Part shown: positions 1-45,909 of the stretch, piece after piece
Numbering within the stretch: position 1 is the stretch's first letter
Layout: each line of letters begins with the position of its first letter
DNA from: Burkholderiales bacterium
GTDB lineage: Bacteria > Bacillota > Clostridia > Christensenellales > SZUA-584
Length of the DNA: 64,000 nucleotides
Assembly: GCA_050260375.1 (NCBI GenBank)
Contig: JBLNCA010000037.1
Span: 137,844-201,843, forward strand
Reading direction: 5' to 3'
Translations under genes and position numbers: made by a program
The notes under the pieces: model-generated
Told to the model about the DNA's origin: nothing
Databases searched by the model: none
What the model saw: only the letters and a program-made list of their open reading frames with translations

Positions 1-1403
1 CGGGCATGACCTTCGACGAGGTCATATCGGTATATACCCTCGCCACGGTAGGCGACGGGCTTTGCAGCCAGATACCCGCGCTGCTCGTTTCCACGGCAAC
101 GGGCATTATAGTCACGCGCGCCGCCACAAAAGATAGCTTCGGGCAGGACGTATCAAAGCAGCTTTTCAATCAGCCGTACGTGTTCTATATACTGGGCGGC
201 ATGCTAGCGATTATTGGTTTTATACCCGGGCTTCCGACGCCGCTTTTCCTTATCGTTGCGATAATTCTGCCGATAATAGGCGTAGTCAAGAGAAACAACG
301 CCAGAAAGAAGGAAGAAGCAGCCGCGCGGGATTCGGAGGAGACGACTGCCGCGGAAAAGAGAAAACCCGAAAGCGTCACATCGCTGCTGCATGTCGACCT
401 TATAGAGATGGAGTTCGGATACGGGCTGATATCGCTTGTAGACGCTTCGCAGGGCGGAGACCTTTTGGACCGCGTGGTTATGATAAGGCGGCAGTGCGCG
501 CTTGATTTAGGCATAATAGTTCCGATAGTACGCCTGCGCGATAACGTGCAGCTGGGTACGCGCGAATATGTGATTAAGATAAAAGGCATAGAAGTCGCGA
601 AAGGAGAAGTCATGCCCGACCATTACCTTGCGCTTAAACCCGACGACGTTGACGAGCCTATAGAAGGCATAGATACCATCGAGCCGACGTTCGGGCTGCC
701 CGCGGTATGGATAACGGAGGCGAACCGCGAAAAGGCGGAGCTTAAGGGCTACTCTACCATAGACGTGCCGTCCGTTATTTCGACGCATCTGCTCGAAGTC
801 ATAAAACGCCATGCGGACGAGCTGATGGGACGCCAGCAGGTGCAGACGATAATAGACAACTTAAAGAGGCAGCAGCCTGCGCTGGTGGAAGAGGTCGTGC
901 CCAAGATGTTTACGATTGGCGAAGTGCAGAAGGTGCTCGCGAACCTGCTCCGCGAAGGCATATCGATACGCGATATTGCGACGATACTCGAAACGCTGGG
1001 CGATTACGGCATGATAACGAAAGACCCCGACGTGCTTACCGAGTATGTGCGTCAGAAGTTTAAACGCGCTATAACTAAGAACTTCATACCGGACAAAAAG
1101 GCAAGGGTAATAACGATAAGCCCCGACGTGGAAAAGGCTATTTCGGGCAGCTTAAGGCAGACGGAGCAGGGCGTACACGCAGCTCTCGAGCCGACGCAGA
1201 TACAGAAGCTGCTCGCCAGCATCAAAAAGGGAATCGACCATTTCCTCAGCCTCGGCGTGACGCCTATGGTGATCACGTCGCCGGTGATAAGAAAGCACAT
1301 AAAGAATTTATCTAGTCAGGTTTACCCCGACCTCGTAGTGCTTTCATACAACGAGATTGAACAGGACGTAGAGATTTTTTCCGACTGGGTGGTGAATATT
1401 TAG
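1..1403 (+). CDS. flhA: FlhA, flagellar type III export gate protein (C-terminal ~465 aa; 5' end outside window)
   Basis: Frame is open to the window edge. Last TM segments (GDGLCSQIPALLVSTATGIIVTRAA) are followed by the FlhA cytoplasmic domain (VMIRRQCALDLGIIVPIVRLRDN). flhF-flhG follow. Confidence 0.92.
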   Translation, partial: GMTFDEVISVYTLATVGDGLCSQIPALLVSTATGIIVTRAATKDSFGQDVSKQLFNQPYVFYILGGMLAIIGFIPGLPTPLFLIVAIILPIIGVVKRNNARKKEEAAARDSEETTAAEKRKPESVTSLLHVDLIEMEFGYGLISLVDASQGGDLLDRVVMIRRQCALDLGIIVPIVRLRDNVQLGTREYVIKIKGIEVAKGEVMPDHYLALKPDDVDEPIEGIDTIEPTFGLPAVWITEANREKAELKGYSTIDVPSVISTHLLEVIKRHADELMGRQQVQTIIDNLKRQQPALVEEVVPKMFTIGEVQKVLANLLREGISIRDIATILETLGDYGMITKDPDVLTEYVRQKFKRAITKNFIPDKKARVITISPDVEKAISGSLRQTEQGVHAALEPTQIQKLLASIKKGIDHFLSLGVTPMVITSPVIRKHIKNLSSQVYPDLVVLSYNEIEQDVEIFSDWVVNI

Positions 1404-7992: not shown

Positions 7993-8490
7993 TTGGAGCA
8001 GTTGTTTGATAAATTGAAGGAATTGTTAGCGCGTCAGACTTCGGCATACGGAGAGCTTCTTGAGCTGTCCAGAAGCGAAAAAGAAGCGATAATAAAAAAC
8101 GACGTGCCGAAGCTGAACGCAATCGTTGAAGAAGAGCAGAAGATTCTCAAGACGATTAAAAAGCTTGAATCCGAACAGAAAGAGCTTTTTTCCAGTTTTT
8201 CTAAGGAGACGGGAATTGAAAAGCCGTATATCAGCGACATAATCGCAATGACGGTCGGCCCGGTCCGTGAACAGCTAAAAGCTACTGAAGAAGAACTCGA
8301 AAGCACGGCGGCGGAACTAAACCGCGTAAACAAGATTAACAAAATGCTGATAGAAACTCAGATACAATATTCGTCGTTTTATATGGACCTTCTTGCAGGG
8401 CCTGTTAATACGATGGAAACATACTCAAACTCTGGCAGATTGAACGGTAAAGCTGCGGTAAGCAACCGTCTGCTGGACCAGAGCGTTTAA
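7993..8490 (+). CDS. flgN: FlgN-family export chaperone
   Basis: 165-aa helical protein (LLARQTSAYGELLELSRSEKEAIIKNDVPKLNAIVEEEQ). Lies between flgM and flgK. TTG start 7 nt after GGAGG. Confidence 0.6.
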   Translation: MEQLFDKLKELLARQTSAYGELLELSRSEKEAIIKNDVPKLNAIVEEEQKILKTIKKLESEQKELFSSFSKETGIEKPYISDIIAMTVGPVREQLKATEEELESTAAELNRVNKINKMLIETQIQYSSFYMDLLAGPVNTMETYSNSGRLNGKAAVSNRLLDQSV

Positions 8491-8501
8491 GGCGGAGTGT
8501 T

Positions 8502-9968
8502 ATGTCTGGATTATTTTATGGACTTGAGATAGCAAAAACAGGGCTCTATGTCAGCCAGAAAGGCTTAAAGCTTTCCGGCAACAACGTAGCGAATGCCAAT
8601 ACGGAAGGATACACGCGTCAAAGGCTCGTTATAGAGTCTCTTTACCCGTCCGCGATGGGCCGTCTTAATATTGGCCTCAGGATTGGCGGCGGCGCGAGCG
8701 TTAAGCAGATCGATCAGATAAGAAGCGCGTATATAGACAGGCAGCTGCGCGGCCAGTATTCGGCGCTGGGCGAATGGAATACCCGTTCCACCGAGATGGA
8801 GTTCATCGCATCGCTGGTGGACGAGACGTCGGACGCCACGAGTCTGTCGTCGGCATTGGCGAGCTTTTATGACAGCTTAAGCAAGCTGGCAGAATATCCC
8901 GAGAGTTTGGAGATTCGAACAAACGTACAGCAGAACGCAATAAAACTGTGCGAGACGTTCAACTATTACTACAACCAGCTCGTCGATCAGCAAAACGCGT
9001 ACAATGACTCCATGCAGGTGACTGTAAACTCGATAAACAGCCTTACTCAGAGCATAGCCGACTATAACAAGCAGATATTCGGTTATGAGCTCAGCGGCCA
9101 GTCCGCAAACGAACTGCGCGACCAGCGCGCGCTGCTGGTTGACAAGCTGTCCCAACTCGTCAACATAGAGTATTCGGAGAATGAGCATGGCCAGCTTACG
9201 ATAACGACAAACGGGCAAACGCTGGTGAGCGATAACAATGCTACGATGCTGCAGACGAGCCCTGACGCTACCACAGGGTTCTACAATATACTCTTTGAAG
9301 GAGCGGATTTTAGCTACAGCAGCGGGGAACTTGAGGCTTACAGGATGCTGCGCGACGGTACAACCGTCGAAGAGATGGGCATTCCGTACCTGCTTTCCAA
9401 CTTAAATACGCTTGCGCAGAGTCTGGCGCAGTCTTTTAACGAGGTGCATGAGACAGGATATACCATACCTATAGGCACAGGGGCATCCTTAACGGGCATT
9501 CAATTCTTCAATGTGCCTGTCGGAGGGTATGCCGCGATAACCGCGGGCAACATAGCGCTTTCCGCCGAAGTGCTCGCCGACGGCAGAAACATAGCCGCTT
9601 CCGACGCTCCTATCGATCTCAACGCGGATGATACGGGTGTAGGAAATTACAAAATTGCGCAGAAATTGTACGAGCTTACTACAAGCAAGACCATAGCGGG
9701 AATAGGCAGCTTTGACGATTTCTTAAGCAGCTTCGTTGTACAGGTCGGCATAGCGTGCACAAGCGCCCGCGATATGAGCGAAAGCCAGACGGCTATAGTC
9801 GAAAATCTCGAGACGCGGCGCGAATCCATTTCCGGCGTATCGATAGACGACGAGATGATTAACCTGTTATCGTTCCAACATTCGTATGCCGCGGCGGCGC
9901 GTGTTATGACCGCAATAGATGAAGCGATTGGCATACTTATTAACAACACGGGCAGGGTAGGACTGTAA
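8502..9968 (+). CDS. flgK: Hook-associated protein 1 FlgK
   Basis: N-terminal GLKLSGNNVANANTEGYTRQ and C-terminal EMINLLSFQHSYAAAARVMT rod/hook-family motifs; 488 aa. Confidence 0.9.
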   Translation: MSGLFYGLEIAKTGLYVSQKGLKLSGNNVANANTEGYTRQRLVIESLYPSAMGRLNIGLRIGGGASVKQIDQIRSAYIDRQLRGQYSALGEWNTRSTEMEFIASLVDETSDATSLSSALASFYDSLSKLAEYPESLEIRTNVQQNAIKLCETFNYYYNQLVDQQNAYNDSMQVTVNSINSLTQSIADYNKQIFGYELSGQSANELRDQRALLVDKLSQLVNIEYSENEHGQLTITTNGQTLVSDNNATMLQTSPDATTGFYNILFEGADFSYSSGELEAYRMLRDGTTVEEMGIPYLLSNLNTLAQSLAQSFNEVHETGYTIPIGTGASLTGIQFFNVPVGGYAAITAGNIALSAEVLADGRNIAASDAPIDLNADDTGVGNYKIAQKLYELTTSKTIAGIGSFDDFLSSFVVQVGIACTSARDMSESQTAIVENLETRRESISGVSIDDEMINLLSFQHSYAAAARVMTAIDEAIGILINNTGRVGL

Positions 9969-9988
9969 TCCCTTATGGGAGGTAGAGC

Positions 9989-10924
9989 ATGCGTATAACC
10001 AGCAGGATGATGAAAAACGATTTTCTTAAGAATTTGAATACAAATCTTACGATACTTACGAAGTCTCAGAAGCAGATAGCGACGGGCAAAGTGTTAAATT
10101 CGATTGCGGACGATCCTATCAGGCTGATATCCAGCATGAACTGCAAGGTCAAGCTGGGAAGGACGCAGCGCTTTAGATCGTCGATTAGTTCGGCGCTCGA
10201 GTGGCTCGACCAAACCGAGTCTTCGGTATCCGAATTGAACAACATTTTAAAATCGGCTTATGAGACGGCCGTCAAGATGTCGAACGACGATTTGACGCTG
10301 GATGATAAAAATGCTGCTGCAGAACTTATTGCGCAGCTTCGCGACCATGTGCTGGGGCTGGGAAACAGCCAGGTGGGCGAGAGGTATATATTCGGCGGTT
10401 ACAACATTAACAAGCCGCCGTTTACAGCGGATGGAGCGGGAGGCATATTCTATAACGGCCTGGATCTTACGGACGAAACAAACGCGAGCCTGATAGCCGA
10501 AGGAAAAGAGAAGATACAGATTGAGCTGGGCTACAACGTTTCTATGGACATTTCGATAAACGGCACAGAACTTATGGGCACGGGCGACGGCAATATCTAT
10601 TCCATGCTCAACGACTTTTACAATGCACTGCGCAGCGACGCGGACGCAAGCGAGCTCGGCGGCTATATTACAAAGATACAGGACGCGCAGAGCAAGACGC
10701 TTTCAACGCTTTCCAAGGTGGGCGGCATGATAAACCGCATGGAACTGCTGGAGAACAGGTATGAGGAAGAACGCCTGACCTATACAGAGCTGAAGTCTAA
10801 AATTGAGGACGTTGACTTCGCCGAGGCGTACATGAACTACAACATGGCAAAAGCAGTATATGAGGCCGCGCTGCAGGTGGGAACGGAGATAACGCAGCGC
10901 ACAATACTCGATTACATGCGATAA
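9989..10924 (+). CDS. flgL: Hook-associated protein 3 FlgL
   Basis: Flagellin-like N- and C-termini (MRITSRMM..; DVDFAEAYMNYNMAKAVYEAALQVG). Follows flgK. Confidence 0.85.
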   Translation: MRITSRMMKNDFLKNLNTNLTILTKSQKQIATGKVLNSIADDPIRLISSMNCKVKLGRTQRFRSSISSALEWLDQTESSVSELNNILKSAYETAVKMSNDDLTLDDKNAAAELIAQLRDHVLGLGNSQVGERYIFGGYNINKPPFTADGAGGIFYNGLDLTDETNASLIAEGKEKIQIELGYNVSMDISINGTELMGTGDGNIYSMLNDFYNALRSDADASELGGYITKIQDAQSKTLSTLSKVGGMINRMELLENRYEEERLTYTELKSKIEDVDFAEAYMNYNMAKAVYEAALQVGTEITQRTILDYMR

Positions 10925-10993
10925 GTAAAGTATAACTCCAAAAACCGGCGGCTTTTGGCGATATATACTTGAAACACAGGAGGAATATGCGGT

Positions 10994-11476
10994 ATGATAA
11001 TTGATACCAGCAGATTTGGTTCGTTCGATATAAATGATAATAAAATCATTGATTTTCCGTGGGGCCTGCCGGGTTTTGAAGATCTTCATAAGTTCGTTAT
11101 ACTTGAAGTGAGCAACACGAAGCCCATATACTGGCTGCAGTCTACCGAGAACAAATATATAGCCCTGCCGGTCATAGTATCGTTTGAGGTGCTCAGCGAT
11201 TACAGCATATACATAAAGGAGCACGAGCTTGAAGGGCTGTATGTGGAAAGCAAGAACGATCTTCTGATATTGAACGTTACGGTGATACCGGAAGATATAA
11301 AGAAAATGACGATAAACCTTGCCGCTCCTATAGTGATCAACGTAAAGCACGGCATTGGAAAGCAGATAATAATAGACGCAAAAGAACTGCCGATACGGTT
11401 TCCGGGATATGAAGCCGTCATGAACAGCATAAAAGGAGGCAAAAGCAATGCTGGTACTCTCTCGGAAAACGGGTGA
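10994..11476 (+). CDS. fliW: FliW, flagellar assembly factor / CsrA antagonist
   Basis: FGSFDINDNKIIDFPWGLPGFEDLHKFVILE and LAAPIVINV motifs. Lies directly upstream of csrA. Confidence 0.9.
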   Translation: MIIDTSRFGSFDINDNKIIDFPWGLPGFEDLHKFVILEVSNTKPIYWLQSTENKYIALPVIVSFEVLSDYSIYIKEHELEGLYVESKNDLLILNVTVIPEDIKKMTINLAAPIVINVKHGIGKQIIIDAKELPIRFPGYEAVMNSIKGGKSNAGTLSENG

Positions 11477-11660
11477 AGGCATTGTCCTTGACAAGGACAT
11501 AACGATAGACATACTTTCGATTGACGGCGACAGGATACGTATTGGTATACAAGCCCCGAGAGAGATGCGTATCTTCCGCAAGGAACTGCTGGAAGAAACG
11601 ATAGACATAAACAGGTCGGCTATAAACGCGCCTGTGGTCGTCTTAAACAAGGATGAATAA
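11448..11660 (+). CDS. csrA: CsrA translational regulator
   Basis: MLVLSRKTGEGIVL..IRIGIQAPREMRIFRKEL. Its RBS (GGAGG) lies inside the fliW 3' end, and the genes overlap by 29 nt. Confidence 0.95.
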   Translation: MLVLSRKTGEGIVLDKDITIDILSIDGDRIRIGIQAPREMRIFRKELLEETIDINRSAINAPVVVLNKDE

Positions 11661-11681
11661 ATTCAGCTATACGATAATAAA

Positions 11682-11706
11682 GCACTGAGTAAACTCGGTG
11701 CTTTTT
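11682..11706 (+). terminator. Intrinsic terminator after csrA
   Basis: GCACTGAG-taaa-CTCGGTGC stem followed by TTTTT. Confidence 0.75.
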
Positions 11707-11845
11707 CGTTAGCATAGAAAAACCACATGCTAAGTGTAAGGGGTAAAAAGCAACTAATACCATAAAAGTGACTAATACCATAAAACAGGCTTTTACAGAC
11801 AAAAGCCCATGTTTCGTTCAGAGGAGCGAAGCGACGAAGAATCTT

Positions 11846-34791: not shown

Positions 34792-35022
34792 ATGGTGTGT
34801 CCTAGGTGCGGCAGCACAAACGTAACGTCTCAGGCGGTGACCGAGACGACATCAAAAGGAAAAGTAAAAGGGTTCGGGAGCATAAAGGCTTTTTTGGGCT
34901 GGCTGTTTTTCTCGGTTCCGGGTATACTCTGCGGCCTGTGCGGCATGGGCAAGGAAAAGACGAGGACGAGGACAAGAACGAGAGTGATAAGGATATGTCA
35001 AAACTGCGGGAAACAGTTCTAG
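34792..35022 (+). CDS. Small zinc-ribbon membrane protein
   Basis: CPRCG and CQNCG pairs flank one hydrophobic segment (FLGWLFFSVPGILCGLC). A TRTRTRTR run is present. Confidence 0.45.
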   Translation: MVCPRCGSTNVTSQAVTETTSKGKVKGFGSIKAFLGWLFFSVPGILCGLCGMGKEKTRTRTRTRVIRICQNCGKQF

Positions 35023-35366
35023 CGCTGCTGCAGGGCATAGGCGACAGAAGCGGCTGCCACCAGATGCCCGAGCGCAGCTTTAAGGCAGGCGAGTATGTAT
35101 TCCCCGTTTGCGCAAGATGCACCGGCGTTTTCTTTGGCCAGCTGTCCGCCGTCATATTCGCAGTGTTCGGCATTGTGTGCCCTTATTATATTGCCGTTTC
35201 GCTGCTGGCTGTAATGGGCGTTGACTGGCTCATACAGAAAATGGGCGTTAAGGAGTCCACGAATATAAGGCGGCTTGTTACCGGCATGTTGGGCGGTTTC
35301 GGGCTGTTCAGCATATATATCGATATTGTTATTCTGCTGTACCGTTTCATAACGGGAATATTCTAG
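34995..35366 (+). CDS. DUF2085-like membrane protein
   Basis: SGCHQMPERSF..PVCARCTGVFFG signature followed by TM helices. ATG 34995 is chosen over the long GTG 34806 ORF. Confidence 0.6.
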   Translation: MSKLRETVLALLQGIGDRSGCHQMPERSFKAGEYVFPVCARCTGVFFGQLSAVIFAVFGIVCPYYIAVSLLAVMGVDWLIQKMGVKESTNIRRLVTGMLGGFGLFSIYIDIVILLYRFITGIF

Positions 35367-35507
35367 TACCGGCTTATCCAATCATCGACAATGTATATAA
35401 CAAAGCAATTGTAAAATATTATTTACATTTACATTCATGCTTGACACAGACAGGAAATTGATATACCATAATTTACAAAAGTATTACAAAAGTTGCGGAG
35501 GTGTTAC

Positions 35508-37100
35508 GTGAAAATACGCGATTATTGCCAGGCTGTTTTAGTTTTGTTTGTACTGATTGTTACTTTTGTCATATCCGCCTGTCAGCCTACGCCGGAGACG
35601 CCTCCGGTCGTACGCAGAGAGGACGATATACCCAAAGAAGCGATTCTGGAAACAGCTGCGCCGCCGACCGCAGAAGTGAAGAACGCTATAGAGCCGGCTG
35701 TTTATTCGGTTAAGGAGCATTGGAAGGAAACGGTGGAAAAGAACGATTTTCTTACCATCGAGGTGGATGCGGATATACTGATGCCCGAGGTGGAGACATA
35801 TCCGGTGGAGCGGCTCGAACGCGTCATACTCACGCAGGAGAAAGTGGATGAACTGATCGCGTATTTTACCGAGCCGGGAACGAAATTCTATACCGGCGAG
35901 CATGTAAGGCTGAAATCGGAGTATGAAGAAGAGCTTATCGAATTGAAACAGAGCCTGCAAAATGTATTGAACGGCGGCGACGGCGAAACTCCCGAGTCCA
36001 TCCGCTCGTATATCAAAGAAGTGGAGCGCAAGATGGCCGAGGCGCCCGAAAGCCATACTTACACGTATGTGGAGCCGGTGTTTACGTATTCGACCGATTA
36101 TGAGACGGGAGAGCCGCGCAAGGAGTACGGGGAAAATACTGTTGAAGTCTCGATAGAATTGCCGGACGGAAAAAGATATGGGTCTGTCTACGCATCCCGC
36201 TATGAAAAAGGTAAAAACACGAGTTCCGGTTTTTCCTACTGCGGTTTCAGCGGCGGGTGGAACATGGAAAGTTATTTTACCTGGTATGACGAAGAACTAA
36301 AGAAGGAAGCGGAGTGGTATGCGAAATTTGATGATGTCGCGTGGAAGAAGGATTGGGCAAGGCAGCGAGAGTTTGTAGACAAAGGACTTAAGCGCATGCA
36401 GGAGAACAACATGGACCTGCGCGCCGCGGCTGACAGTGCGATTCGCGTGCTGGAGGAGCTGGGCGTAAAAGGAATGCAGCTTAAAAGCTTTGAAAAGGCG
36501 ATGTTCTCCAGGGAGCGCGGCAAGGAAGGAGAAGAAGATCATACAATACCCGGCTGCTACGTGGAGTTTGTACGCGAATGCGGCGGCATTCCCTCGACTT
36601 CGCAGCGCGGCGGCAGTTTTTCGAATGACCAGGATTACTCCGAGCTATATTGCGCGCCCTTTTATCTGGAGAATGTGAGCATGATAATAAGCGAGGAAGG
36701 CGTAGAATACTTCTCATGGAATAGCATGGCGCAGGTAGTGGAGCGCGTTGCCGAAAACACCACTCTTATGCCGCTCGATAAAATGAAAGAGCGCGCCCTC
36801 GACCACATTTTCTTTATGAATGGAGCATGGCTGGACGGAAAGCGCGGCAAAATGCGCATCAATATCGAGGAAATGCGCCTGGTTACCACGTACATAAACG
36901 CCAAGGACGATACTGAGCGCGTGCTTATCGTACCCGCGTGGCTTATCAAGGCGCAGGAAGAACACTTTTTAGAAGAAAAAGATGTCTGGATCGACGGAAA
37001 TGAAGAGGAATTCATGATAAATGCGCTCGACGGCAGCGGCATACTTATGCCGGGCATATTGGAACGTATGCAGGAAAGTAAAGAAAGGATGAAACAGTAA
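35508..37100 (+). CDS. Large lipoprotein of unknown function
   Basis: GTG start 6 nt after GGAGG. Lipobox FVISAC followed by a Pro/Thr/Glu linker. I recognise no catalytic motif. Confidence 0.6.
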   Translation: MKIRDYCQAVLVLFVLIVTFVISACQPTPETPPVVRREDDIPKEAILETAAPPTAEVKNAIEPAVYSVKEHWKETVEKNDFLTIEVDADILMPEVETYPVERLERVILTQEKVDELIAYFTEPGTKFYTGEHVRLKSEYEEELIELKQSLQNVLNGGDGETPESIRSYIKEVERKMAEAPESHTYTYVEPVFTYSTDYETGEPRKEYGENTVEVSIELPDGKRYGSVYASRYEKGKNTSSGFSYCGFSGGWNMESYFTWYDEELKKEAEWYAKFDDVAWKKDWARQREFVDKGLKRMQENNMDLRAAADSAIRVLEELGVKGMQLKSFEKAMFSRERGKEGEEDHTIPGCYVEFVRECGGIPSTSQRGGSFSNDQDYSELYCAPFYLENVSMIISEEGVEYFSWNSMAQVVERVAENTTLMPLDKMKERALDHIFFMNGAWLDGKRGKMRINIEEMRLVTTYINAKDDTERVLIVPAWLIKAQEEHFLEEKDVWIDGNEEEFMINALDGSGILMPGILERMQESKERMKQ

Positions 37101-39338: not shown

Positions 39339-40230
39339 GGCGAGGCAGGTTTGTTCCGTAACCGCATATAACTTCAGGCAATGGCGCGCAAACCCGCGCG
39401 TGATTATAACGTTCGCTCTGGCTTTTATACTGTGTTTTCTGCTCTCCGACAAAGCGGTGCGCTTTGCGAAGGAATACGAAACGACTATGCAGATAGTCGA
39501 GGCGTTCGTATGGACTTTCGGGGACAGCAATTCCATATTGCTGTCGTCGCTGCTGCTCGTGCTGCTGTTCGCGGACATGCCGTTCCTCTCCGCGGGTACG
39601 CCGTACTACCTTCTGCGCATTAACCGCAAGACGTGGCTCGCGGGGCAGGCGCTCTATATCACGCTCGCCACCGGCATATATATGGTGTTCATACTGGCTT
39701 CCACGTCGCTTATTTGCATGAGCAATTCGTTCATAGGCAACATGTGGAGCGAAACGGCCGCTATACTCGGCTATTCGGGTGCGGGCAAGGCAGTGGCGCT
39801 GCCCGCGCTCGTAAAGACGCTCGAGATGAGCACGCCTTACGAGTGCATGGCTACGATATTCCTGCTCATGCTGCTGTATACGCTGCTGATGTCGTTTATC
39901 ATGCTGTCGTTCAACATACGCAAGGGGCAGCTGGCGGGCGTAATCAGCGTGTTCGCATTCAGCCTGTACGGGTTTTTGCTAAATCCCAATCTATTCAAGA
40001 CGATGTTCCAGCTTCCCGAAGAACTTATTTATAAGGCAAACGTAGCCGTGGGGTGGCTGTCGCCGTTGAACCATGCGACGTATCACATGCATAATTTCGG
40101 TTACGACCTGCTGCCGCGGCTCTGGCAGACGTATGTCATATTCGGCGTGCTGATAACGCTGTGTTTCTTTTTCGCATTGCGGGCGGTGCGCAGGTACAAT
40201 TTTAATTTCAGTGGAACGGAGAATGTGTAA
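39331..40230 (+). CDS. ABC-2/LanE/G-like permease, second subunit
   Basis: Polytopic membrane protein. ATG 39331 lies 7 nt after GAAGGAGG. TAATG overlap with the ATPase gene. Confidence 0.55.
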   Translation: MYRARQVCSVTAYNFRQWRANPRVIITFALAFILCFLLSDKAVRFAKEYETTMQIVEAFVWTFGDSNSILLSSLLLVLLFADMPFLSAGTPYYLLRINRKTWLAGQALYITLATGIYMVFILASTSLICMSNSFIGNMWSETAAILGYSGAGKAVALPALVKTLEMSTPYECMATIFLLMLLYTLLMSFIMLSFNIRKGQLAGVISVFAFSLYGFLLNPNLFKTMFQLPEELIYKANVAVGWLSPLNHATYHMHNFGYDLLPRLWQTYVIFGVLITLCFFFALRAVRRYNFNFSGTENV

Positions 40231-40871
40231 TGGACATAGCCATCAGCGTTCAGAACGTGACAAAGCGGTTTGGGGAGGAAACGGTACTTAAAAACGTCAT
40301 CCACGATTTCGAGGAAGGCAAGATACACGGCATTGTAGGCAACAACGGCAGCGGCAAGACTGTGCTGATGAAGTGCATCTGCGGTTTTCTTATTCCCACA
40401 AGCGGCAAAATATTCGTCAATTACAAGCAGGTGGGCAAAGACTGCGACTTCCCCGAAGACATCGGCATAATAATCGAAACGCCGGGTTTTCTGCCGGGAC
40501 TGTCGGGCATGAAAAACCTTCAGATACTTGCTTCGCTTTGCAGGAAGATAAACGACGATACAATACGCGCTGCAATAAAGCGCGTGGGGCTTGACCCGTC
40601 GATGAAAAAGCCGGTGGGCAAGTATTCGCTCGGCATGCGCCAGCGGCTCGGCATTGCGCAGGCAATAATGGAAAACCCGTCGATACTGGTGCTTGACGAA
40701 CCGCTGAACGGCCTTGATAAAAGCGGCGTCGCGGAGATGCGCAGCCTAATAAAATCGCTGCGCGACCAGGGAAAGACTATGCTGCTCGCGAGTCACAACC
40801 AAGCGGACATCGACGAGCTTTGCGACACCGTCTGCGAAATGGACGGCGGCGTACTTACGGTTGTCAAATAG
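40230..40871 (+). CDS. ABC ATPase, E-loop (LanF/BcrA-like) subtype
   Basis: Walker A GNNGSGKT. IGIIIETPGF has Glu in place of the Q-loop Gln. Signature YSLGMRQR, Walker B ILVLDEP and H-loop ASHN are present. Confidence 0.85.
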   Translation: MDIAISVQNVTKRFGEETVLKNVIHDFEEGKIHGIVGNNGSGKTVLMKCICGFLIPTSGKIFVNYKQVGKDCDFPEDIGIIIETPGFLPGLSGMKNLQILASLCRKINDDTIRAAIKRVGLDPSMKKPVGKYSLGMRQRLGIAQAIMENPSILVLDEPLNGLDKSGVAEMRSLIKSLRDQGKTMLLASHNQADIDELCDTVCEMDGGVLTVVK

Positions 40872-42687: not shown

Positions 42688-43359
42688 ATGAGTGAAGTAA
42701 TAAGTCTGAAAAACGTCGTCAAGATGTATCCCGGCGCAAAGCGCGCCGTAAACGACATCACGCTTAACATAAGCGAGAACCAGCGCGTTATAATACGCGG
42801 GCCGACGGGCAGCGGCAAACGGACGCTGATGAAACTTATCGCCGGCATGCAGCCCCCGAGCTCCGGCAGCGTTACTGTGATGGGCAAAGCGCTGCATGAA
42901 ATGGACGAAGATGCGGCCGCGCGCTTCCGTAATAAGTATATAGGCGTCGTGCCGCAAACGCCCTCGCTGTTCCATGGGCTCACGGTGCTCGAAAACGTGG
43001 AGTTGCCGCTTGCCGCAAGGGGAATCCCGGCTGCGCAGCGCAGGAAAGCGGCGCTCCAGCAGCTCAAAACTATGGGCATTACGCACATATCATATGCTTA
43101 CCCTTCACAGCTGACCGCGCTTGAGGCGCAGATAGCGTCCGTTGCCAAGGCGCTTATAGCGCGGCCGAAAATACTGCTGCTGCATGATATACTCGCACCG
43201 CTGTCCGAAAGGGAAACCGAACAGTTCGCGGGCACGATGCACGCCGTCTGGGAATTCGGGTGCTGTACGGCGCTCTACTTCACCTGCGCGGCTCCGGCCC
43301 TGGACGCGGAGAGGCTGATAACGTTAAGCCACGGAAAAATTCAGGAGGACATTCGATGA
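42688..43359 (+). CDS. ABC-type NBD (LolD/MacB-like) with degenerate catalytic motifs
   Basis: Aligns end to end with LolD-type NBDs. However, Walker A is GSGKRT, the signature is LTALE, Walker B is LLLHDI, and the H-loop His is replaced by Cys. Confidence 0.8.
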   Translation: MSEVISLKNVVKMYPGAKRAVNDITLNISENQRVIIRGPTGSGKRTLMKLIAGMQPPSSGSVTVMGKALHEMDEDAAARFRNKYIGVVPQTPSLFHGLTVLENVELPLAARGIPAAQRRKAALQQLKTMGITHISYAYPSQLTALEAQIASVAKALIARPKILLLHDILAPLSERETEQFAGTMHAVWEFGCCTALYFTCAAPALDAERLITLSHGKIQEDIR

Positions 43360-44768
43360 GAAAACTAAGTATTATTCTTGCTATAATGATACTTTGCATT
43401 ACGCCGGCCTCGGCGCTTGCCGAAGGCGAAGGCGGCGGAGGCGGCGGGGGAAGCGGGGGAGATGCGGTTCTTTCGATAGACAACGTCAACGTTTACGACG
43501 GTATGGACAGGGCGTATAAAGACGGATATATGCCGACGGTAAGCGGCGGCATAGCTACTATTATTATTCCGCTTGTAGTCAACCCGGGGAGTGTGGTGGA
43601 CGGAAATACCATCACGGTTACTCCTGCGCTCGGCGAAACGTCGGCGTCGCCTTTTGTGTACAAGAACTATCAGAAGGCTGTCGGCCTCGCAAACAACGCC
43701 GTAAACGGAGGTACATCCACCATTCCGTCGTTTCTTGTGCGGTTCGATCTCGAGCTTGCCGCGGGGCGCATAAACGGCGTTTACCCGGTGAGCATAGACG
43801 TCGCGGCAACCTCAGGGGGGAACCCGGTGCAGCAGACGTTCACCGCGTATGTAACGATTACCGACGGCAAGGACCCGAACGCTCCGGAAGCAACGCCCAA
43901 ACCGCAGTCGCAGCCCAAAGTGATAGTAAGCGGCTACAGCATAAACCCCTCGCCCGTAAACGCGGGCGAAGGTTTTACGGCAACTGTGACGCTTAAGAAC
44001 ACGAGCACAAAGAAGTCCGTACAGAACATGACGGTTACGGTTTCCTGCGACTGCCCGAATTTTGCGCTGCAAAACGACACAAGCACGATATTTATAGGCA
44101 ACCTGGCAAAGGGCAAGACCACGGATGTAGTGCTCGAATACAAAGTAGACCTTGAAACGCCCGCCCAGAGGTATAACATAATGCTCGCGATAGATTACGA
44201 GGATTCAAACGCGTCGCCGCTTTCTTCGTCGGGAACAATTCAGGTTGCGGTAATCCAGCCTCTTAATGTAAAGATGGAACCGCCTAAGATTCCCGACAGC
44301 GTCAACGCTGGCGATACGATGCCTTTAAAGTTCCAGGTGATGAACATGGGGCGCGGAAAGGTCTACAACGTGCGGTGCGAGCTCGCGGCGCCCGGTCTTA
44401 TACCTTCCGAGGTGGCTTTTATAGGAAACATGGAGCCGGGCACGGACGGCGAGGGCGAGATGGACGTGTTTGTAGGCATGAAAAGCATGACGGAAGGGTA
44501 CGAAGGCGACGATAAATACGGGCCCACAAGCGGCAAAATAACCCTTAAATACGAGGACGGCAACGGGCAGGAGTACACAGAGGAAGTCGATATATTCACA
44601 ATGATAAACCCGCCTGAAATAAACCCCGTTTCCGCCGATGCCGAAGAGGAGCCCGATAAGGCGAGCCAGTGGTGGATATCGCTTATAGCCGGCGGCGCGG
44701 TAATCGCCGTGCTTGTAATACTGCTTGTTGCGCGCAGGAAAAAGGTGAGGCCGCATGAGGATTTTTGA
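43356..44768 (+). CDS. Secreted, C-terminally anchored protein with CARDB/COG1361-like repeats
   Basis: Signal peptide (ITPASALA), a Gly run, and beta-sandwich-type repeats (VIVSGYSINPSPVNAGEGFTATVTLKNTS; PDSVNAGDTMPLKFQVMNMG). C-terminal TM followed by RRKK. Confidence 0.65.
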   Translation: MRKLSIILAIMILCITPASALAEGEGGGGGGGSGGDAVLSIDNVNVYDGMDRAYKDGYMPTVSGGIATIIIPLVVNPGSVVDGNTITVTPALGETSASPFVYKNYQKAVGLANNAVNGGTSTIPSFLVRFDLELAAGRINGVYPVSIDVAATSGGNPVQQTFTAYVTITDGKDPNAPEATPKPQSQPKVIVSGYSINPSPVNAGEGFTATVTLKNTSTKKSVQNMTVTVSCDCPNFALQNDTSTIFIGNLAKGKTTDVVLEYKVDLETPAQRYNIMLAIDYEDSNASPLSSSGTIQVAVIQPLNVKMEPPKIPDSVNAGDTMPLKFQVMNMGRGKVYNVRCELAAPGLIPSEVAFIGNMEPGTDGEGEMDVFVGMKSMTEGYEGDDKYGPTSGKITLKYEDGNGQEYTEEVDIFTMINPPEINPVSADAEEEPDKASQWWISLIAGGAVIAVLVILLVARRKKVRPHEDF

Positions 44769-45909
44769 CCTTGCGCGCATTGCCGTAAAAAGCCTTACCA
44801 GATGGGCGGTGCTTCCCGCCGCGGCCGCGGCTATAGGCGTGTTTTGCATGTGCGTGGCGGGTACGGCGCTTGCGGTGGTGCAGCAGGAGAAGTCGCAGCC
44901 TTTTGAATTGAGCTTTTCGTCGCAGGACTCGGATATTACCGAAAACGACATTGCAAATATATCGGAAATTGAGGACGTAAAGGCGGTAACGCCGGTGTTC
45001 GAGGTTCCTGCCAGCGTTGCCGCGGGCGATTATTCGGCGGAGCTGAACCTTATTGGCATATATTCTTCTTATTTAACCGGGAAGTTCAAGGCGGGAGGCG
45101 TGTTTCCGGAAAGCGGCGTAATGCCGTATATCGTGCTTAACGAAGCTGCGTGCAAAGAGTTCAAGAGCAAAGAAGACTATTTGGAATACGAATATTTCGG
45201 AGACGAAACGGACTCGGAGGAATCGGACGCGCCCGACGTAGACTGGCTACAGGAGAGCATAAAGATCATGGCGGGTGAAGGCAAACCCGTCACCGCAAAA
45301 ATATCCGGCATATTGTCGGCGGAGGAAGAGGACGAGCAGCCCGCCGCCTATATCAGCGTTACCGCCGCGAAAGGACTGCTGCCGCCCGGCCAGCAGGGAA
45401 GCGCAAAAGCGAGCGCGCGCATAACCAATATAGGCTGCGCCGAAAAGGTGTCGCGCAGCATAACGGCGTTGGGATTCAATATAGACAACACAAACGACGA
45501 ATTGCAGGCAAAGTGGGACAGCCAGGAGGGGCAGATAGCGTATCTGCTTGTGATAAGCATATTTTCGCTGCTTTGCTTTTTTGCTCTGACGGCGTCGTCA
45601 ACAAAGATATCAATGCTGGAGCATAAAAACGAATGGCAGATGCTGAAGTGGACGGGCTTAAGGGACAGGGATTTAAGCCGTATATTTATAATACGCATGC
45701 TTGTTCTTGCGGCGTCCGGTATTCTTGCGGGCATAATAGCCGGCACGTCGCTGCCGTCGTTTTTGGACCCCGACCCTTGGGGCGCGTCCGTTTACACGCT
45801 GCCCGTTCCTTTCTGGGTGGCGGCAGCCAGCGGCGCGGTATTTCTGCTCGCAGGCGTCGCGCCGTCGCTTAATATAAAGAAACTCGTGTCGTATGAACTG
45901 GACTCATAA
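44755..45909 (+). CDS. FtsX/MacB-type ABC permease
   Basis: TM1, a ~230-aa extracytoplasmic domain, then three TMs in an FtsX-like C-terminus. Overlaps the previous gene by 14 nt. Confidence 0.75.
   Translation: MRIFDLARIAVKSLTRWAVLPAAAAAIGVFCMCVAGTALAVVQQEKSQPFELSFSSQDSDITENDIANISEIEDVKAVTPVFEVPASVAAGDYSAELNLIGIYSSYLTGKFKAGGVFPESGVMPYIVLNEAACKEFKSKEDYLEYEYFGDETDSEESDAPDVDWLQESIKIMAGEGKPVTAKISGILSAEEEDEQPAAYISVTAAKGLLPPGQQGSAKASARITNIGCAEKVSRSITALGFNIDNTNDELQAKWDSQEGQIAYLLVISIFSLLCFFALTASSTKISMLEHKNEWQMLKWTGLRDRDLSRIFIIRMLVLAASGILAGIIAGTSLPSFLDPDPWGASVYTLPVPFWVAAASGAVFLLAGVAPSLNIKKLVSYELDS

Follow-up and report, generated by a model that had tools for sequence, protein, structure and literature searches.

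We analysed a stretch of 64,000 nucleotides (nt), hereafter the window, from contig JBLNCA010000037.1 of assembly GCA_050260375.1 (positions 137,844–201,843 of the forward strand), in which three genes at 42688–45909 encode an ATP-binding cassette (ABC) nucleotide-binding domain (NBD) with degenerate catalytic motifs, a CARDB/COG1361-like type I membrane protein and an FtsX/MacB-type permease (Table 1). The degenerate NBD of this trio is designated NBD*, and a canonical NBD encoded upstream is designated NBDcan. Tight coupling of the three genes, proposed in an earlier reading made from the sequence alone (the sequence-only reading), was found at both junctions: the NBD* and CARDB-like genes share an ATGA overlap (43356–43359), the CARDB-like and FtsX genes overlap by 14 nt (44755–44768), and a Shine-Dalgarno-like sequence lies ahead of both downstream starts (43356 and 44755). 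NCBI labels for the window proteins are generic ("ABC transporter ATP-binding protein"), a name that would wrongly imply an active ATPase in the case of NBD*.

NBD* matched the Pfam model ABC_tran (PF00005) at 2e-23, with 84 bits against a cut-off of 25, and 188 NBDs of the PDB matched it below 1e-10. Consistently with the LolD/MacB-type assignment of the sequence-only reading, its top NCBIfam families (FtsE, LolD, YbbA, DevA and MacB, all scoring far under their curated cut-offs) and its best PDB matches (Spr0694, YbbA, YtrE, MacB, MJ0796 and LolD) all fell in the MacB/LolD/FtsE clade. Motif positions were taken from residue-by-residue HMMER alignments to the solved MacB-family NBDs 5xu1, YbbA (9ge6) and YtrE (9o9x), and the substitutions stayed where they had been placed by eye, in Walker A, the signature, Walker B with the catalytic Glu, and the switch His. 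The Walker B Asp is replaced by His166 and the catalytic Glu by Asp167, and the D-loop reads APLS versus GALD. Two further details, the retained Q-loop Gln and the Arg of Walker A, hold in the window; as family traits they do not, both being limited to close relatives. From these motifs we infer, in agreement with the sequence-only reading, that ATP hydrolysis is absent in NBD* and that its homodimer should not hydrolyse ATP.

For the permease, a hydropathy scan placed transmembrane (TM) helices at amino acids (aa) 24–42, 261–279, 310–328 and 351–369, with an outside domain of about 218 aa after the first. The scan and the Pfam FtsX match agree on the mechanotransmission layout already proposed for this protein, namely one helix, a large outside domain and three more helices. 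A profile of its orthologues matched LolF (4.5e-7), MacB (8e-7), YtrF (9o9x_C, 3.9e-6) and also LolE, and the orthologue in locus L088 gave a weak MacB_PCD match. With an FtsX-fold permease and a co-encoded NBD of the MacB/LolD/FtsE clade, the trio is, by predicted fold and clade, a type VII ABC module.

Degenerate motifs are maintained across the NBD* family

A word-indexed search recovered 11 NBD* clusters at 45–95% identity, followed by a drop to canonical NBDs at about 33%, and a profile search run exhaustively against 1.84 billion representatives brought in about 33 further single-domain members of 217–232 aa. Motif counts refer to 44 family sequences, in whose alignment the canonical control NBDs had every motif intact. 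None of the 44 carries the GG of the signature or a His at the switch position, and the D-loop Asp and the Q-loop Gln are found in only two and six of them, respectively. The remaining positions are more variable: the Walker A Lys is present in 36 and the Walker A Ser/Thr in 26, the aromatic residue of the A-loop in 22, and the Walker B Asp in 23, while the catalytic position holds Glu in 19 and Asp in 22. Within the window's own clade, the Mg-coordinating Ser/Thr position is occupied by Arg, Gln or His. Since eight full-length members have lost the P-loop Lys (e.g. GGDRLERDA and GA-ANERTS), nucleotide binding appears to be dispensable in some lineages. At the old signature site the family has a new conserved motif, L-[S/T]-x-[L/Y/F]-E, with the Glu in 39 of 44 sequences and a bulky residue at the position of the second signature glycine, which normally contacts the gamma-phosphate.

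We then considered the selection acting on these sequences. The ratio of non-synonymous to synonymous substitution rates (dN/dS) of NBD* was 0.156 when the window copy was compared with the 87%-identical orthologue of locus L003, neighbouring genes giving 0.05–0.19 in the same comparison, and it was 0.248 on an independent branch (L087–L089). The permease-docking residues T99, E102 and N103 are invariant in the 12 closest family sequences, E102 and N103 are at least 90% conserved in a 35-sequence family alignment, and a full-length NBD* open reading frame (ORF) is maintained down to 30% identity. A profile scan of genome contigs with the family alignment gave only canonical NBDs (at most 38% identity) among the matches listed, and no orthologous loci. 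Because the signature GG and the switch His are lost family-wide at a dN/dS of 0.16–0.25, NBD* is, on this comparative evidence, a maintained degenerate family and not a decaying copy. The comparison of orthologues proposed in the sequence-only reading thus revealed substitutions held under purifying selection and no member with a canonical signature or switch, and the option of a decaying gene, which that reading had kept, is refuted.

NBD* belongs to a conserved cassette with a second, live ABC module

Nine loci were recovered through NBD* or CARDB-like orthologues, with NBD* identities of 30–87%, including a Christensenellales and a Clostridiaceae metagenome-assembled genome (MAG). The genes are arrayed in the order regulator, DUF6034 protein, an optional peptidoglycan enzyme or peptidase, TM1, TM2, NBDcan, NBD*, CARDB-like protein and FtsX, TM1 and TM2 being the two permease subunits of a second ABC module. 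The seven-gene core (DUF6034, TM1, TM2, NBDcan, NBD*, CARDB-like and FtsX) is complete in eight loci, and in the ninth (L089) the contig starts inside NBDcan. L002 and L087, both counted as complete, have an FtsX gene that appears disrupted. In these two loci the CARDB-like and/or FtsX genes are split or fused (L087 9672–12483, L002 10059–12125), which could reflect frameshifts, assembly errors or, in some lineages, genuine decay of the type VII module.

The NBDcan and NBD* genes are adjacent or overlapping in six of the eight loci in which both are seen, overlapping by 4 nt in L001, L085, L087 and L088 and abutting in L086, and NBD* never occurs without NBDcan in the sampled loci. Only in the window, L003 and L004 does a VanW/PG_binding_4 gene stand between them (its start in the window, 40886, was set from a 584-aa orthologue in L003), and by this distribution the gene is a lineage-specific insertion. 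The canonical ATPase to which the sequence-only reading had pointed, 1.8 kb upstream, is therefore real (the gap is 1816 nt) and is, rather than an incidental neighbour, a conserved member of the cassette. The slot between the DUF6034 and TM1 genes is filled, depending on the locus, by an Amidase_3 protein, VanY or a C39 peptidase; taken together with the VanW insertion, this changing content indicates that the cassette repeatedly recruits cell-wall enzymes.

In the live module, NBDcan had as its best NCBIfam family TIGR03740, a lantibiotic-protection ABC ATPase (7.8e-55), and as its best PDB match PmtC (6xjh). Its motifs GNNGSGKTV, IIETPG, YSLGMRQR, ILDEP and ASHNQ are near-invariant in the eight loci where it is complete, varying only in the two hydrophobic residues that precede DEP, whereas all the NBD* motifs are variable. 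No cassette protein is better conserved than TM2, at 71–95% identity across loci whose NBD* sequences are only 30–50% identical. Neither TM1 nor TM2 matched a PDB sequence, paralogy between the two was not detectable when they were compared, and a single-sequence AlphaFold2 (AF2) model of TM2 was too poor for use (predicted local distance difference test score, pLDDT, 46.7). By these comparisons TM1 and TM2 are putatively an unclassified permease family.

A DUF6034 gene lies upstream of the transporter genes in all eight loci in which the upstream side is present (including L001–L003 and L085–L088). L003 (152–2647) encodes it as a fusion with the M56 protease domain of BlaR1, in which it takes the place of the usual penicillin-binding sensor domain; the window protein is a lipoprotein-like paralogue, 23% identical to this fusion, and in L085 (3574–16754) the cassette is surrounded by six DUF6034 genes or fragments of such genes. 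The DUF6034 protein is thus a candidate extracellular sensor or ligand-binding component. Regulators are BlaI with a BlaR1-type M56 protein in L001–L003 and an OmpR/HAMP-HisKA pair in L086–L088; no regulator gene adjoining the cassette was found in the window (no BlaI/BlaR1) or in L085.

Mobile-element genes were seen 3' of the cassette in several relatives, namely serine recombinases (L001 13305–16611), a phage-type integrase (L088 17336–18685) and IstB/DnaB-like genes (L089 4058–6011), a sign that mobile elements may carry the cassette. The window copy sits among sugar-utilisation genes.

Table 1 Features of the cassette and of its immediate upstream side (window coordinates in nt; aa, residue numbers of the encoded protein)
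Feature	Position	Strand	Evidence or remark
DUF2085 membrane protein	34806–35366		Just 5' of the cassette, where close relatives carry BlaI/BlaR1
Promoter-like TTGACA-17-TACCAT	35441–35469		Weak consensus match only
DUF6034 protein, N-terminal lipoprotein-like signal (VISAC)	35493–37100	+	Pfam DUF6034 2.6e-40
N-acetylmuramoyl-L-alanine amidase, N-terminal TM helix	37664–38530	+	Pfam Amidase_3 1.7e-49; variable slot
TM1, polytopic, about 5–6 TM helices	38556–39338	+	Hydropathy scan; first permease subunit of the live module
TM2, polytopic, about 6 TM helices	39325–40230	+	Second permease subunit of the live module
NBDcan, LanF/DrrA/PmtC (type V) clade	40230–40871	+	ABC_tran 3.2e-29; all motifs intact
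VanW/PG_binding_4 protein, N-terminal TM helix	40886–42640	+	Pfam VanW 8.9e-31, PG_binding_4 2.5e-13
NBD*	42688–43359	+	223 aa; MacB/LolD/FtsE-clade NBD, catalytic motifs degenerate
NBD* Walker A	42799–42825	+	GPTGSGKRT vs GPSGSGKST; Gly and Lys kept, Mg-binding Ser/Thr replaced by Arg
NBD* Q-loop Gln90	42955–42957	+	Retained
NBD* signature	43111–43125	+	LTALE vs LSGGQ
NBD* Walker B and catalytic position, ILLLHD	43171–43188	+	ILLLHDI vs IILADEP
NBD* switch Cys200	43285–43287	+	FTCAAP vs VTHDLQ; His replaced by Cys
CARDB/COG1361-like type I membrane protein	43356–44768	+	470 aa; Pfam CARDB 1.4e-5
CARDB-like signal peptide	aa 1–23		Part of the 470-aa protein
CARDB-like Gly run	aa 26–35
CARDB-like three beta-sandwich domains	about aa 38–170, 188–300, 305–418		AF2 model
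CARDB-like QWWIS juxtamembrane motif	aa 438–442 / 44667–44681	+	Directly before the C-terminal TM helix
CARDB-like TM helix	aa 441–459		Followed by a basic tail
FtsX/MacB-type (type VII) permease	44755–45909	+	384 aa; Pfam FtsX 1.6e-11

Both halves of the cassette exist alone and evolve at different rates

Each half was found on its own, with a live ATPase, in a Clostridium genome. In Clostridium niameyense (L090), a canonical NBD (P0014), a CARDB-like protein and an FtsX permease form a trio in the same gene order, with no upstream type V module and no DUF6034 gene. P0014 has all canonical motifs and is among the closest canonical relatives of NBD* (33–35% identity); the 272-aa middle protein is homologous to beta-sandwich domains 2–3 of the window protein (hhalign 87%, E 4e-6), and the permease combines MacB_PCD and FtsX. 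Conversely, the 178-kb plasmid pCM008-A of Clostridium tagluense (L091, record 8283–11764) carries a stand-alone TM1-TM2-NBD operon together with a gene for a hypothetical protein. Its TM1 homologue was detected by hhalign (99%, E 2.6e-18), its TM2 homologue by tblastn (27.6% identity over 93% of the length), and its NBD is 62% identical to NBDcan. Downstream of this operon lies an unrelated ASCH gene, and the operon's divergent neighbour is an annotated MutFEG lantibiotic-immunity operon, an adjacency that gives a hint of a relation of the live half to antimicrobial peptides.

Mean pairwise identities over the six common loci were 0.82 for TM2, 0.815 for NBDcan, 0.64 for TM1, 0.57 for the CARDB-like protein, 0.455 for NBD* and 0.435 for FtsX, which separates two rate classes, a slow live half (TM2 and NBDcan) and a fast pair formed by NBD* and FtsX. 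Mirror-tree correlations were all high (0.67–0.95) owing to the shared phylogeny and do not discriminate between partners. The simplest reading of the cassette's origin would be that a live type V module became joined to a type VII module, whose NBD subsequently lost catalysis.

The middle protein is a membrane-anchored tandem-Ig surface protein

The sequence-only reading had given the middle gene a signal peptide, a Gly run, CARDB/COG1361-like repeats and a C-terminal anchor. The signal peptide, the Gly run and the C-terminal TM helix were borne out by an AF2 model (mean pLDDT 81.5); the repeats proved to be three beta-sandwich domains, only one of which is recognised as CARDB by Pfam (1.4e-5). 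A Foldseek search with this model returned generic tandem immunoglobulin (Ig)-like folds with low TM-scores and no functional analogue, and no relative was found in a PDB sequence search with the protein. The QWW of the juxtamembrane QWWIS motif is invariant in all 44 aligned CARDB-like homologues, and the motif is a candidate contact site to the FtsX transmembrane helices. The CARDB-like family comprises more than 650 clusters, the top 120 of them at 42–90% identity, and the cassette is therefore common in metagenomes. A variant of about 750 aa (L088 9001–11253; P0325–P0331) has extra domains and a weak DUF7154 match in otherwise identical cassettes.

Taxonomic label and further scans of the window

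The trio proteins are deposited at NCBI as MGE5495315.1 to MGE5495317.1 under the title "MAG: Burkholderiales bacterium". Every relative found belongs to Christensenellales, Clostridiaceae or Clostridium, and DUF6034, VanW and a C-terminally anchored surface protein give the gene content a Gram-positive appearance, so that the MAG is probably mis-binned or mislabelled. An Rfam search of the window gave no match, comparison with PADLOC returned only generic ABC-ATPase similarity, and a search of phage records only weak CARDB-like matches. Scanning for promoters and terminators revealed no convincing operon boundaries apart from the promoter-like site 5' of the DUF6034 gene.

Proposed function and alternative explanations

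Taking these data together, we lean towards a cassette of two ABC modules, in which a live type V exporter (TM1, TM2 and NBDcan) stands beside a type VII module that keeps NBD* as a structural pseudo-ATPase, a non-hydrolysing accessory in an envelope-stress cassette. NBD* would retain the ABC fold, the permease-docking groove and, in most lineages, the P-loop. A productive ATP sandwich would not be expected, since the signature glycines and the switch His are gone, the D-loop Asp is lacking, the Q-loop Gln and the catalytic base are mostly missing too, and a bulky residue occupies the gamma-phosphate contact. NBD* may instead persist on the cytoplasmic side as a structural subunit bound to the FtsX dimer, serving assembly, stability or a clamp in a fixed state, and the FtsX/CARDB-like/NBD* unit may act as a passive surface receptor or scaffold with no ATP hydrolysis of its own. 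For the co-expressed live transporter and the cassette's peptidoglycan enzymes, this type VII module might offer or pass on a ligand of the cell envelope or keep an envelope enzyme in place; expression of the whole set would be induced by a sensor of the BlaR1 or two-component type that makes use of DUF6034. The pairing of NBD* with FtsX, the role as scaffold or receptor and the context of envelope stress or antimicrobial peptides are what we infer.

Several observations weigh against this proposal. Neither TM1 nor TM2 matched a Pfam or NCBIfam model even at E = 10, so that the presumed exporter could be assigned to no known permease family. The distance pattern of NBD* correlates with that of every cassette protein (r = 0.86–0.95) and does not single out FtsX as its partner, and the 4-nt overlap of the NBDcan and NBD* genes is also what a heterodimer of the two would predict. 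In addition, the Asp-Glu pair of Walker B is intact in 10 of the 44 NBD* members; together with the P-loop Lys kept in 36, this makes some residual nucleotide-dependent behaviour possible for part of the family.

A conformational latch, in which NBD* binds ATP with no hydrolysis or a very slow one and works as a nucleotide-dependent switch that holds FtsX and the CARDB-like protein in one conformation, for instance constitutively "on" or reporting the energy state, has in our view a small but appreciable chance of being right. The P-loop GxxGxGK persists in 36 of 44 members and in all nine sampled loci, half of the family (22/44) keeps the aromatic residue of the A-loop, and an Asp or Glu is mostly retained after Walker B; against this stand the Arg, Gln or His that replaces the Mg-coordinating Ser/Thr in the window clade, the eight members devoid of the Lys, the D-loop Asp surviving in just two sequences, and the bulky residue at the second signature glycine, which should block the ATP sandwich. 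The sequence-only reading had further suggested that the trio borrows the upstream ATPase, and a heterodimer of NBDcan and NBD*, with one live and one dead subunit, much like ABCG5/G8, TM287/288 or BmrCD, powering either TM1/TM2 or the FtsX dimer, would be its concrete form. Gene adjacency in six of eight loci with the 4-nt overlap in four of them, the absence of any sampled locus with NBD* and no NBDcan, and the dissimilarity of TM1 and TM2, which are not detectably paralogous and could in principle bind different NBDs, all speak for such a pair. We nevertheless regard it as quite improbable, since the degeneracy is non-complementary (NBD* is defective in signature, Walker B and switch alike, which leaves both composite sites degenerate), the two NBDs come from different clades that dock on different permease types, their evolutionary rates lie about threefold apart, and each half exists elsewhere without the other, the TM1-TM2-NBDcan operon being complete with no NBD* and the trio of NBD, CARDB-like protein and FtsX having its own ATPase. 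Borrowing is thus not supported in the form proposed, NBDcan being of the LanF/DrrA (type V) clade with two permease genes of its own, in a set that stands alone on the C. tagluense plasmid.

That the NBD gene is a decaying remnant, a pseudogene or an assembly artefact in a non-functional trio is hardly credible. Decay would fit the substitution of every catalytic motif, the faster evolution of NBD* and FtsX relative to the other cassette members and the apparent splitting of FtsX or CARDB-like genes in L087 and L002; yet some 44 divergent representatives, drawn from many separate assemblies, have intact ORFs of 217–232 aa, dN/dS stays at 0.16–0.25, the signature has been replaced by a new conserved motif and translational coupling is preserved. 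Going beyond the structural pseudo-ATPase that we favour, an ATPase-dead type VII machine could be functionally coupled to the live type V transporter, either in a supercomplex with a single motor for two ABC architectures, or as an ATP-independent surface receptor, whose task would be to bind a ligand of the envelope or to pass a signal to the sensor (DUF6034, BlaR1 or histidine kinase). We think this unlikely; if true, it would be the first natural demonstration of an FtsX-family function that proceeds with no hydrolysis by its own NBD, and would provide a rationale for the puzzling NBD-independent phenotypes of the Ytr system of Bacillus subtilis.

Comparison with known systems

In the current view, which the NBD* family challenges, type VII systems such as MacB, LolCDE, FtsEX and BceAB work only through ATP-driven mechanotransmission. 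The trio shares with MacB, LolCDE, FtsEX, YbbAP and Spr0694-0695 an NBD that clusters with theirs, a four-helix FtsX permease with its outside domain between the first two helices, and an extracytoplasmic partner encoded next door (in those systems MacA, EnvC, PcsB or TesA). It differs from them in that they need ATP binding and hydrolysis, whereas the NBD* family lacks the catalytic motifs, and in that its partner is a membrane-anchored tandem-Ig protein instead of a coiled-coil activator or a membrane fusion protein. The C. niameyense trio likewise departs from that of the window by its canonical NBD and its shorter middle protein (272 aa). Closer assignments within type VII were considered and set aside: for FtsEX proper, NBD* scored 116.5 bits against a cut-off of 264.85 for TIGR02673 (FtsE) and its partner is tandem-Ig CARDB-like with no coiled-coil activator; the window amidase, as a possible FtsEX-type partner, sits in the variable slot of the cassette; and the permease has 4 TM helices, not the 10 of the BceAB type.

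On the side of the live module, LanFEG/MutFEG systems resemble the cassette in pairing one NBD with two different permeases, and TIGR03740 is the best family of NBDcan. NBDcan also has a Glu in place of the Q-loop Gln (IIETPG), this "E-loop" being typical of LanF, and a signature of the SLGMRQR type. It was not assigned to curated LanFEG, with 186 bits against a cut-off of 309.75 and with TM1 and TM2 matching no MutE/MutG or ABC-2 model of Pfam or NCBIfam.

Naturally degenerate NBD motifs held by selection are also a feature of heterodimers such as BmrCD, TM287/288, ABCG5/G8 and CFTR, in which the degeneracy is split between the subunits, Walker B and switch being affected in one and the signature in the other, the non-hydrolytic site is structural or regulatory and one consensus site is left. 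NBD*, by contrast, has a degenerate signature, Walker B, catalytic base, D-loop and switch all by itself, so that its homodimer would have two dead sites.

Within the searchable literature, neither DUF6034 nor this cassette is the subject of any paper that we found, and no case of a degenerate NBD in type VII systems came up. From the genomes compared, the trio is predicted to be a type VII module with a conserved pseudo-NBD, set in a dual-ABC envelope cassette that is uncharacterised. The NBD* family, which is widespread in Clostridia and held under purifying selection, argues that an FtsX-type permease with a surface partner can have an ATP-independent role, its NBD surviving as a structural pseudo-enzyme. 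With its BlaR1-type or two-component control and the peptidoglycan enzymes that often adjoin it, the cassette is a candidate for an inducible system with which gut anaerobes protect the envelope or withstand antimicrobial peptides.

The nearest architectural parallel is YtrBCDEF of B. subtilis. YtrE has canonical motifs, unlike NBD*. Both systems hold in one operon a type V module, with one NBD and two different permeases, and a type VII module, with a MacB-clade NBD and an FtsX-type permease that has a large outside domain. The differences are in the order of the first module, where the cassette has the permeases before the NBD, in the CARDB-like protein inserted between NBD* and FtsX and the DUF6034 gene added upstream, in the regulators, which are BlaI/BlaR1 or two-component versus the GntR-type YtrA, and in TM1 and TM2, which have no recognisable family. 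YtrE and YtrF (PDB 9o9x) were among the better, not the best, matches, at 3.6e-25 for NBD* and, with the longest coverage, at 3.9e-6 for the FtsX profile. Orthology to Ytr components is thus seen weakly and for the YtrE- and YtrF-like parts only, and membership of the Ytr family is not established. AlphaFold predicts YtrBCDEF as YtrB2CD (type V) plus YtrE2F2 (type VII) (PMC11466899), and the system is induced by inhibitors of the lipid-II cycle and stimulates wall synthesis (PMC12772383). Its overexpression phenotypes, a thick wall and a competence phenotype, were still seen after deletion of the NBDs YtrB and YtrE (PMC8060467), and the cassette described here, in which the type VII NBD is degenerate by nature, is a natural experiment bearing on the function of YtrBCDEF.

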